61,629 nt of DNA from a virus (Duplodnaviria > Caudoviricetes), in the IMG/VR virus record IMGVR_UViG_3300043772_002642, positions 1-61,629 of that record; one strand, 5' to 3'. This document shows positions 26,197 to 27,195 of this stretch, piece by piece. The notes beneath the pieces are model-generated. The model saw only the letters and a list, made by a program, of their open reading frames with translations. It had not been told where the DNA came from and searched no databases. The stretch's first letter is position 1. Every line of letters starts with the position of its first letter. The position numbers were made by a program, and so were the translations under genes.

Positions 26197-27045
26197 TTAA
26201 TATTTAAAATTTAGATAACTAGATTCTAATTTTTCTTTTAACATCAGTTGATAAGCTCGTGCTAGTCTTGTCATACCAATACCACCACCAAACCTTGGGA
26301 AAAATTCAAAAGATAAAAACTCTTCCAACTCTTTTTCAACTCTTTCTTTACCAAACAATTCAAATAATTTAGCACAGTATTTACCATCTTCTATTGTGTA
26401 AAAATTGTGTTTCATTTCTTCAACATCACAACTTCTTTCAGCAGAACCAATAGTTTCTTGACCATAAAGTATAACATCAACTTTGTTGAAGATATTATTT
26501 TCTTTATGTTTCATATTCCAAAAAGGGTTTGTTCTCAAAGGAAAGTTTTGTAAAGAAACCACAGGACCTTTTTCTTGCCACATTCTTGTTTCATGTTCGT
26601 TTTCAAGTATTTCTACATTACCATATTCTTGACAAACATCATTATAATTTACCTCAATTGGTTTTTCAAAACCCAAATGGTATAACAACTCAGATTCTAA
26701 TTTTAACATTTTGTCCATACCACCCTTAGATTCAAACTCAAACATTGGGAATATCATTTCGTGTCTTCCTTCTATTGGGTTCTTTTCTTGTCTGTAAGAA
26801 GTAGAGATACAATAAACACCTTTCCATTCAGGATTTTTAAGTAGTTCATATTCTAACCACATCTGACCTGTTTGTGGTAAAGGCCAAACTTGACCATTGT
26901 AATTAAATGTAGCGATTGAATGTGGGTTCTCACATGCCGCTAAAATTGACAACCTACTTTGTGTAGGTACTTCTTTGAAACCTTTCTCTTGAAAGAAGTT
27001 TCGCATTCTTTGCACTAGTTCATTGTAACTTTTTGTGTCTTTCAT
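26197..27045 (-). CDS. Class II aaRS catalytic-domain-only protein (AsnRS/AspRS paralog; probable asparagine synthetase of the AsnRS-like type)
   Basis: Motif 1 RNFFQEKGFKEVP, motif 2 SYRQE..GRH..FPMFEFE, ETIGSAER, motif 3 GGGIGMTRL. No anticodon-binding OB domain. Asn-rich leader upstream. Confidence 0.75.
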   Translation of the reverse strand: MKDTKSYNELVQRMRNFFQEKGFKEVPTQSRLSILAACENPHSIATFNYNGQVWPLPQTGQMWLEYELLKNPEWKGVYCISTSYRQEKNPIEGRHEMIFPMFEFESKGGMDKMLKLESELLYHLGFEKPIEVNYNDVCQEYGNVEILENEHETRMWQEKGPVVSLQNFPLRTNPFWNMKHKENNIFNKVDVILYGQETIGSAERSCDVEEMKHNFYTIEDGKYCAKLFELFGKERVEKELEEFLSFEFFPRFGGGIGMTRLARAYQLMLKEKLESSYLNFKY

Positions 27046-27071
27046 TTTTGTTTTTTTTTAGATTTGTCAGG

Positions 27072-27103
27072 GCAAAAAAAATCCCTTCATTTAGAAGGGA
27101 TTA
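27072..27103 (-). terminator. Attenuator-type terminator in the leader of the AsnRS-like gene
   Basis: Minus strand AATCCCTTC-TAAAT-GAAGGGATT-TTTTTT, about 30 nt before the ATG at 27045. Confidence 0.8.
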
Positions 27104-27135
27104 CTGTCGCCGTTATTATTTTGTAACTTTATCAT
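27091..27135 (-). CDS. Putative Asn-sensing leader peptide
   Basis: MIKLQNNNGDSNPF* (AAT AAT AAC ... AAT) starts just after TATATTTAT; its stop lies in the terminator loop. Confidence 0.7.
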   Translation of the reverse strand: MIKLQNNNGDSNPF

Positions 27136-27195
27136 CAGAAATAAATATACCAAAAATAACTTGAGTGTAAAGATATTTTATATTATTTTTATAAA

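Follow-up and report, generated by a model that had tools for sequence, protein, structure and literature searches.

The viral DNA analysed here, IMG/VR record IMGVR_UViG_3300043772_002642 (Caudoviricetes; 61,629 nucleotides, hereafter the window), carries on its minus strand a gene for a protein that resembles the catalytic core of a class II aminoacyl-tRNA synthetase (aaRS). The gene is preceded by a very short open reading frame (ORF), rich in asparagine (Asn) codons, which ends in the hairpin of an intrinsic terminator. This arrangement recurs in related phages and is highly likely to be a genuine, conserved leader of the attenuator type. As to its function, an attenuator that depends on coupled translation, placed before a ligase of pyrimidine synthesis, appears to be the best joint explanation, with a likelihood just short of even.

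Organisation of the leader region

All coordinates of the locus refer to the minus strand of the window. From the promoter to the gene, the features are as follows.

27166..27171, minus strand: TTTACA, upstream promoter-like hexamer (-33/-35-like), from a promoter scan, consensus match only
27142..27149, minus strand: TATATTTA(T) box, similar to the Bacteroidota sigma-A -7 element TAnnTTTG, from sequence reading
27091..27135, minus strand: leader ORF of 14 codons plus TAA, peptide MIKLQNNNGDSNPF, from sequence reading
27112..27120, minus strand: three tandem Asn codons, AAT AAT AAC, starting 18, 15 and 12 nt upstream of the hairpin base
27100..27102, minus strand: fourth Asn codon, AAT, forming bases 1-3 of the hairpin 5' arm, from sequence reading
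27080..27102, minus strand: terminator hairpin AATCCCTTC-TAAAT-GAAGGGATT with a 9-bp stem and a 5-nt loop, from reading and a terminator scan
27070..27081, minus strand: uninterrupted T8 (27074-27081), then GCCC (27070-27073), from sequence reading
27046..27069, minus strand: A-rich spacer of 24 nt without an evident promoter or Shine-Dalgarno sequence, from sequence reading
26197..27045, minus strand: class IIb aaRS catalytic core, 282 aa, from Pfam PF00152 and PHROG phrog_29758

The upstream hexamer belongs to the scan match TTTACA-16-TATATT with a TG, which has 10 of 12 matches to the consensus. Six nucleotides separate the TATATTTA box from the leader ATG. The ORF reads ATG ATA AAG TTA CAA AAT AAT AAC GGC GAC AGT AAT CCC TTC TAA, and its stop codon is located within the loop of the hairpin. 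The T8 plus GCCC motif has a single occurrence in the window, and TTTTTGCCC is likewise found once. A preliminary description of this locus had named the same elements (the box, the 14-codon ORF with three consecutive Asn and a fourth, the 9-bp hairpin and the U-run), and both the sequence reading and the terminator scan agree with it. The hairpin terminates no upstream gene, because the synthetase-like gene is the only long minus-strand ORF amid plus-strand genes.

According to two studies, the sigma-A -7 element of Bacteroidota is TAnnTTTG (PMC7366714) and spans positions -12 to -5 in Flavobacterium psychrophilum (PMC9723704). Since the element spans these positions, the leader ATG would lie at about +3, an estimated 2-5 nt from the predicted start site, and the leader mRNA would be nearly leaderless. 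Strong clues for leader-peptide attenuation are also given there for amino-acid operons of F. psychrophilum (PMC9723704). The host of the phage is probably a member of the Bacteroidota. The endolysin gene of the window has 69.7% DNA identity to Flavobacterium phages, the closest genome-collection matches of the synthetase-like protein are binned as Spirosoma, Cytophagaceae and Fluviicola, and the A-rich gene start region, devoid of a Shine-Dalgarno sequence, fits this group. Contigs from six sequencing runs match the window; the best four are labelled RNA-Seq, are probably DNA and speak for presence only.

Conservation of the leader among related phages

The best 80 IMG/VR loci, encoding proteins with 74-99% identity, were compared, 79 of which have enough upstream DNA. 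A perfect hairpin followed by a T-run lies 16-55 nt before the start codon in 70 of these 79 relatives, and the spacer between hairpin and gene is A-rich. About 15 different stem sequences occur; their pairing is kept, and the AATCC...GGATT base is mostly conserved. The T-run is 8 nt long in 52 and 9 nt long in 16 of 71 terminators (U8-9 in 68/71), and it is followed by GCCC in 54 of 70 relatives. The retention of GCCC (27070-27073 in the window) while the hairpin stems vary is an observation in its own right, as is a T-run with GCC after hairpins in front of some Patescibacteria homologs, seen by eye (e.g. L156, L163, L203 and L207).

Among the leaders, 51 are distinct, and they were grouped into 18 peptide families that cannot be aligned with one another. 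An ATG-initiated ORF that stops between -8 and +20 of the hairpin base is present in 17 of the 18 families, which were delimited by the same peptides whose stop position was later tested, against 3.2 expected from dinucleotide shuffles of the upstream 75 nt (Poisson-binomial P 2e-13). The stop codons of these 17 start at -10 to +15 of the hairpin base, whereas one family reads through the hairpin. Across the families, the ORF comprises 7-26 codons before the stop, and a TATATTTA-like box precedes its ATG by 2-10 nt in 16 of 18, with a gap of 6-7 nt in 13. The leader sequences diverge freely, yet the positions of ATG and stop are retained. A further family (L023, L043 and L049) has no mini-ORF; here, a gene upstream in the same orientation comes to its stop 9-13 nt short of the hairpin. 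A scan with P0121 gave 21 loci and few new leaders; hand translation showed two to contain Asn (L116 and L130) and two to be similar to family B (L126 and L134).

The cassette is mobile, and its neighbours differ between phages. They include genes for a PPK2-lysozyme, FKBP, a metallophosphoesterase, a PAS protein, an endolysin, Gp23 and the small chain of ribonucleotide reductase, and no neighbour of the synthetase-like gene is conserved among the phages compared. Loci of the candidate phyla radiation (CPR) with a hairpin directly upstream of the gene were considered and not counted as the same device; in one of them (L168), an estimated 75 nt or so lie between the hairpin and the end of the upstream Dus gene.

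Asparagine codons in the leader ORFs

Leader ORFs are enriched in in-frame Asn codons. Counted from the first member of each of the 18 families, Asn accounts for 60 of 280 in-frame codons, compared with 21/262 and 11/262 in the other two frames (21% in frame against 4-8% out of frame; Fisher P 4e-10). Three nulls of the same composition, namely dinucleotide shuffles and two Markov nulls conditioned on an open frame, gave means of 30-32 with a standard deviation of about 5, and a count of 60 was reached in 0/5000, 0/3000 and 0/1500 draws. Runs of at least three Asn occur in 6 of 18 families, while about 0.3 are expected (some 2% per leader under the Markov nulls), and these runs mix AAT and AAC. 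The long ORFs of the window contain 6.8% Asn and not one run of three in 11,979 aa. Lysine is also frequent in the leaders (47/280 codons; family-averaged 18.6%).

The preliminary description had suggested looking upstream of homologs for conserved micro-ORFs with Asn runs and terminators. Hairpins, ORFs and Asn enrichment are indeed conserved among the related phages, but not in family I and locus L137, which lack Asn codons before the hairpin, or in distant homologs.

Identity of the synthetase-like protein

The product of the gene matches Pfam PF00152 (tRNA-synt_2) with 49.5 bits against a cut-off of 25 (E 4e-13) and phrog_29758 with an E-value of 5.5e-97. Because the Pfam match begins at the first residues, the protein has no N-terminal anticodon-binding domain, and its earlier assignment as a class II core without this domain is thus upheld. 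An AlphaFold2 model reached a predicted local distance difference test (pLDDT) value of 96. Foldseek placed the cores of asparaginyl- and aspartyl-tRNA synthetases (AsnRS and AspRS) at the top, followed by the archaeal asparagine synthetase AsnA with template-modelling (TM) scores of 0.66-0.69, normalised to target length. The same order was obtained with the family profile, which gave 1.9e-15 for AsnRS, 1e-13 for archaeal AspRS, 1.2e-7 for archaeal AsnA and 7.5e-5 for EpmA (PDB 3a5z).

Curated models of single functions score far below their cut-offs. The AsnRS models TIGR00457 and NF003037 yielded 24.3 and 28.6 bits against 342.6 and 414, with part of the core aligned, and the model for archaeal asparagine synthetase A, NF005053, yielded 17 bits against 322. 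TIGR00462, which represents EpmA/GenX, the lysine ligase of elongation factor P and an activity previously named as an alternative, reached 23.5 bits against 286.9.

By eye, the family consensus keeps SYRxE...RHxxxFPMFEFE and GGGIGxxRL, which we take to be the class II motif 2 and motif 3 patterns, and residues R251 and R260 are nearly invariant. Because these patterns and residues are kept, an active enzyme is more likely than a regulatory subunit. We infer an adenylate-forming ligase derived from AsnRS or AspRS, probably with AsnA-like chemistry, in which a carboxylate is adenylated and an amide is then formed. The family is large, with more than 8000 clusters at 90% identity and 717 at 50%, 186 of the latter below 1e-30, and literature searches found no described function for it.

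Pyrimidine genes beside cellular homologs

The cellular loci considered are the best 80 of 430 genome-collection matches, with 55-82% identity (most 56-62%). The bearers comprise DPANN archaea, Patescibacteria, Dependentiae, Coxiellaceae, Chlamydiota, Bdellovibrio-like bacteria and Bacteroidota, and the contigs reach a length of 3.8 Mb. In the following, X denotes a member of the synthetase-like family. Within 1.5 kb of X, tblastn detected a phosphoribosyltransferase (PRTase) in 23 of the 80 loci, the orotidine 5'-monophosphate (OMP) decarboxylase PyrF in 18 and either of them in 25. The operon X - PRTase - PyrF was confirmed by Pfam in three loci (L143, L194 and L176), and PRTase and PyrF also adjoin X in the giant-virus-like loci L097, L102 and L112. 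Among the representatives of the 50% clusters, X is fused to PyrD (PyrD+X, P0125) and to PyrF (X+PyrF, P0146). A viral scan with P0125 gave 28 loci, many of them giant-virus metagenome-assembled genomes (MAGs), which matched the aaRS-like part only and contained no PyrD fusion.

In five bearer genomes searched in full, matches over the cut-off were found for PyrC in 0/5, PyrB in 0/5 and CarB in 1/5, for PyrF and a PyrD-like gene in 4/5 each, and for AsnRS and AsnB in 2/5 each. PyrB was over the cut-off in 0 of 9 bearer genomes tested, and 11 of 14 lack a PyrC-like match at E 1e-20 or better. Within one order (61 genomes), PyrC at 1e-20 was present in 0/5 genomes with X and in 43/56 without X (Fisher P about 0.0014, not corrected for kinship), and none of these five genomes with X has PyrB over the cut-off. 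A strict rule by which X replaces PyrC was rejected, as PyrC-like matches exist in 3 of another 5 bearer genomes.

From this gene context, the family most likely acts in pyrimidine synthesis, upstream of PyrD, and for the phage enzyme itself the chance of such a role is somewhat better than even. It probably works at the front of the pathway, where it would form an amide bond on a dihydroorotate precursor derived from aspartate or Asn. A bolder version, which is unlikely as it stands, sees in the enzyme the missing front end of a shortened pathway, standing in for CarAB, PyrB and PyrC, and in the leader a sensor of Asn availability. The dihydroorotate ring would then be built or closed from Asn or aspartate, for instance from Asn and a C1 unit or by ATP-driven cyclisation of carbamoyl-aspartate, in many reduced bacteria, DPANN archaea and giant viruses. 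The sensor would open only when Asn-tRNA is plentiful, possibly with additional sensing of uridine triphosphate (UTP) via the U8-9 tract. Such a pathway would explain the AsnRS-like pocket, the Asn codons of the leader, a tRNA-Asn gene beside the cyanophage homologs (see below) and the absent PyrB and PyrC.

Some further observations concern these cellular loci. Beside X, L154 encodes (3-1454, minus strand) a 484-aa protein that apparently joins a PRTase part (tblastn) to a DHO_dh/Dus-like part (Pfam), and seven Patescibacteria loci have a co-oriented Dus-family gene upstream. The palindrome TTGCGCGC(A/G)A is found upstream of the gene in 10 of the 80 cellular loci, mostly Proteobacteria (L145, L150, L152, L153, L160, L164, L176, L177, L194 and L208), and the motif TT(T/C)GCGCCAATTTATGCAA in six loci of the Weeksellaceae/Moheibacter type. 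Both are candidate operator sites of a regulator.

Proposed mechanism of control

In folds of the representatives of all 18 families, the 5' arm of the terminator showed little or no pairing with upstream sequence, and the stable hairpins that precede the 3' arm (families H, M, O and R) are located upstream of the 5' arm. The preliminary description had likewise noted no separate antiterminator, and its reading extends to all 18 families. In the absence of an antiterminator, a direct competition between the ribosome and the hairpin remains.

The outcome of this competition would depend on where the ribosome halts. Its footprint is taken as reaching about 12 nt beyond the codon in the A site. 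The tandem Asn runs begin at -18, -19, -22, -34, -24 and -29 from the hairpin base. Because they begin 18-34 nt upstream, a ribosome held at the first codon short of charged tRNA would leave the arm free, whereas a ribosome that finishes the ORF would cover the 5' arm in every family, because the stop codons lie at -10 to +15. This geometry points to a sign of control opposite to that proposed in the preliminary description, in which a ribosome stalled on the Asn codons masks the terminator arm; that proposal now appears doubtful.

The cassette would accordingly be read as a Bacteroidota-type promoter, a nearly leaderless Asn-rich mini-ORF, a terminator without antiterminator, an A-rich spacer and the gene, which together may form a coupled-translation attenuator of the pyrBI/rph-pyrE kind. 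The hairpin would stop transcription unless a ribosome on the mini-ORF trails the RNA polymerase closely enough to occupy the 5' arm. The Asn codons, mostly 10-34 nt upstream, would tie read-through to charged tRNA-Asn: when Asn-tRNA is scarce, the ribosome would lag and transcription would terminate, and when it is plentiful, the polymerase would read through. UTP may be sensed in addition, via the invariant U8-9 tract. Translation of the mini-ORF, the sign of control, the sensing of UTP and the reaction of the enzyme are inferred; the anatomy, its conservation, the Asn enrichment, the missing antiterminator and the pyrimidine genes beside the homologs are observed. Control that opens at Asn plenty has about an even chance, and control that opens at Asn starvation is unlikely.

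tRNA genes and other neighbours

In the cyanophages P-SSM2, P-SSM7 and P-SSM5, ARAGORN found a tRNA-Asn(GUU) gene of 87-88 nt within about 10 nt after the homolog.

L001 2299-2384 (P-SSM2): tRNA-Asn(GUU)
L002 2290-2376 (P-SSM7): tRNA-Asn(GUU)
L005 2265-2352 (P-SSM5): tRNA-Asn(GUU)

The tRNA-Asn of P-SSM2 has a variable arm of 15 nt, an unusual feature in a tRNA-Asn. Across L006-L085, the only tRNAs closer than 2 kb to the gene are two in L073, about 1 kb upstream. ARAGORN called no tRNA anywhere in the window. The Rfam tRNA model (gathering threshold 29 bits) matched three tRNA-like genes there, in which the acceptor, D and T arms are intact and inserts of about 33-68 nt replace the anticodon arm. 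A link between these genes and a synthetase core without an anticodon-binding domain is possible. Divergent from the synthetase-like gene lie two overlapping genes that look like a tRNA-repair pair.

45739-45827, plus strand: tRNA-like gene without anticodon arm, 42.1 bits
45939-46041, plus strand: tRNA-like gene without anticodon arm, 33.7 bits
46256-46401, plus strand: tRNA-like gene without anticodon arm, 39.9 bits
27602-28627, plus strand: Rnl1-like RNA ligase, phrog_562, E 7.5e-67
28624-29043, plus strand: polynucleotide kinase (PNK)-like P-loop ATPase, phrog_2071, with a weaker polynucleotide kinase match; overlaps the RNA ligase gene

On the other side, the segment 26038-26184 between the stop of the synthetase-like gene and the next plus-strand gene is flanked by the inverted repeat AAACCCCTAATTTT / AAAATTAGGGGTTT and contains a hydrophobic ORF of 42 aa (26051-26179, plus strand). 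In contigs of runs X1 and X3, the segment is replaced by 16 other letters (joint 26037/26185). It is an insertion/deletion polymorphism and may represent a small insert that is mobile, or a module for bidirectional termination.

Alternative explanations

The preliminary description held that Asn starvation opens the device: a ribosome stalled on the Asn codons would mask the 5' arm and thereby turn on a tRNA-independent asparagine synthetase of the archaeal type. The in-frame Asn enrichment, the missing antiterminator, the fold similarity to archaeal AsnA (TM 0.66-0.69) and the tRNA-Asn beside the cyanophage homologs are in line with this model, as are the Asn codons at the hairpin base in the window and at -12 to +1 in families A, C, E, F, G, J and P. 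However, a ribosome at the stop codon would also mask the arm, so plenty and starvation would both lead to read-through unless release were very fast, and the tandem runs start so far upstream that a ribosome halted at their first hungry codon would not reach the arm. The product, too, is doubtful as an asparagine synthetase: NF005053 reaches 17 of the required 322 bits, the cellular context consists of pyrE and pyrF with fusions to PyrD and PyrF, AsnRS is absent from 3 of 5 bearer genomes and AsnB is over the cut-off in 2 of 5. The model as a whole is therefore unlikely, and asparagine synthetase as the product, taken by itself, is only slightly less so. Less probable still is a coupled attenuator that senses UTP only, in which the mini-ORF merely supplies the trailing ribosome and the many Asn codons simply follow from a leader that is A-rich and unstructured. 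Such a device would suit the stop codon at the hairpin in 17/18 families, the uniform U8-9 tract (68/71 terminators), the pyrimidine genes beside the homologs and the A-rich leaders with their frequent lysine codons (47/280). Yet the Asn excess survives dinucleotide shuffles and open-frame Markov nulls of the same composition, the mixed AAT/AAC runs are homopolymeric at the amino-acid level only, and consistent U-rich pause clusters upstream of the hairpin were not seen by eye.

Were the ORF untranslated, the promoter, short transcript and terminator could represent a gene for a small RNA, or an insulator moving together with the mobile gene, and the enzyme would be expressed via read-through or another signal, for example a phage antitermination factor. 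The short distance of about 2-5 nt between predicted start site and ATG, the varied contexts of the cassette, the unexplained conserved GCCC after the T-run and the weakness of the only Rfam match (Phe_leader, 23.7 bits against a gathering threshold of 55) would agree with this, but the ORF ends at the hairpin in 17/18 families against 3.2 expected and the in-frame Asn content of 21% against 4-8% both call for translation, and leaders that diverge freely have nevertheless kept the positions of ATG and stop. We regard this explanation as improbable, and we give about the same low weight to an RNA-directed role of the enzyme in general. Its specific form, that the enzyme charges unusual phage tRNAs or tRNA-like RNAs with Asn or aspartate and that the leader senses the same amino acid, is the least probable of all. 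It would account for the tRNA-Asn(GUU) directly after the homologs of P-SSM2, P-SSM5 and P-SSM7 with the 15-nt variable arm in P-SSM2, for the three tRNA-model matches with inserts in place of the anticodon arm and for the neighbouring Rnl1-like RNA ligase and PNK-like ATPase. Against it stand the scarcity of tRNAs within 2 kb in L006-L085 (L073, with two about 1 kb upstream, being the exception), the pyrE-pyrF operons of cellular homologs with 56-62% identity and the distance of 19 kb between the tRNA-like genes and the synthetase-like gene in the window.

The coupled-translation attenuator in front of a pyrimidine-related ligase has several points against it as well. The tRNA-Asn neighbour in the cyanophages points to tRNA or Asn and not to pyrimidines, and three Chitinophagales among the 14 bearer genomes have PyrC-like genes with 219-254 bits. 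The sign of control depends on an assumed footprint geometry; a stall at the fourth Asn codon at the hairpin base of the window, or at the Asn codons at -13 to +1 in several families, would mask the arm. Inspection of the leaders by eye revealed no consistent clustering of U-rich pause sites ahead of the hairpins. In family I, the ORF continues through the hairpin and contains no Asn codon up to that point; the same is seen in L137 by hand translation. Only one or two Asn codons occur in each of families K, M, N, O and R. The device is absent in homologs at 46-61% identity (three cyanophages, two huge phages and giant-virus-like MAGs). Finally, such nearly leaderless mRNAs are a minority in two Bacteroidota species, with 5.5% leaderless mRNAs in F. 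psychrophilum (PMC9723704) and about 3.7% of 5' untranslated regions shorter than 10 nt in Bacteroides thetaiotaomicron (PMC7366714).

Implications

If the proposed reading is correct, the cassette would contain a codon-leader attenuator for Asn, an amino acid for which neither the literature searches nor the Rfam scan gave such a leader; the searches did not cover the supplementary leader-peptide lists (PMC9723704 Table S7, SI Appendix D9; PMC7366714 Supplementary Data 3). The earlier remark that an Asn attenuator, especially in a phage, was not recognised as described agrees with this result. The attenuator would be carried by phages within a mobile one-gene cassette, and it would show a minimal design of ORF and terminator, without antiterminator and on a nearly leaderless transcript, in a Bacteroidota-type system. 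The locus also points to a very large uncharacterised enzyme family, the gene context of which hints at an as yet undescribed step by which phages, giant viruses, CPR bacteria, DPANN archaea and intracellular bacteria would make pyrimidines. If true, this would bear on a long-standing gap, namely how pyrimidines are made in genomes that have pyrD, pyrE and pyrF and lack pyrB and pyrC.

Comparison with known systems

Like the trp, his, leu, thr, pheA and pheST leaders, the phage leader is a short ORF rich in one amino acid in front of an intrinsic terminator, and in the pheST attenuator the regulated gene encodes an aaRS. Leaders of the trp/his type, however, use a 2:3 antiterminator and have their stop codon upstream of the terminator, whereas the phage leader has no antiterminator and its stop lies in or at the terminator. 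The gene product of such systems is tied to the amino acid of the leader; here, the core is AsnRS/AspRS-like, remains below the curated cut-offs and occurs in a pyrimidine context. In Rfam 15, Phe_leader (RF01859) matched below its threshold, with an E-value of 0.79.

Archaeal asparagine synthetase A (PDB 3p8t/3reu/3rl6) is, like the phage enzyme, a class IIb core (about 290 aa) that lacks an anticodon-binding domain, but the phage family matches AsnRS and AspRS better, and its gene context is pyrimidine and not asparagine synthesis. Another parallel is HisZ, the HisRS-like partner of the short ATP phosphoribosyltransferase. HisZ is a class II aaRS paralogue without a tRNA function whose gene lies beside a phosphoribosyltransferase gene, a description that probably fits cellular X as well; in contrast to HisZ, the family treated here keeps the motif 2 and 3 patterns, and phages carry X alone.

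The closest resemblance is to E. coli pyrBI, with its pyrL leader, and rph-pyrE. In these operons, close coupling of translation and transcription suppresses termination, the spacing between stop codon and attenuator loop is important and the "leader" of pyrE is the end of the upstream gene (PMC2784333, PMC7818426). The phage ORF differs in being tiny (7-26 codons), nearly leaderless and enriched in Asn, and the cassette differs in being phage-borne and mobile, probably in a Bacteroidota host. By eye, the phage hairpins also lack the U-rich pause cluster that precedes the pyrBI attenuator, so that only the terminator tract of U8-9 is U-rich. As in pyrBI and rph-pyrE, however, the ORF runs up to or into an intrinsic terminator without an antiterminator, the family of L023, L043 and L049 uses the end of the upstream gene as its leader, as rph-pyrE does, and the downstream gene is linked to pyrimidine synthesis via its cellular context.

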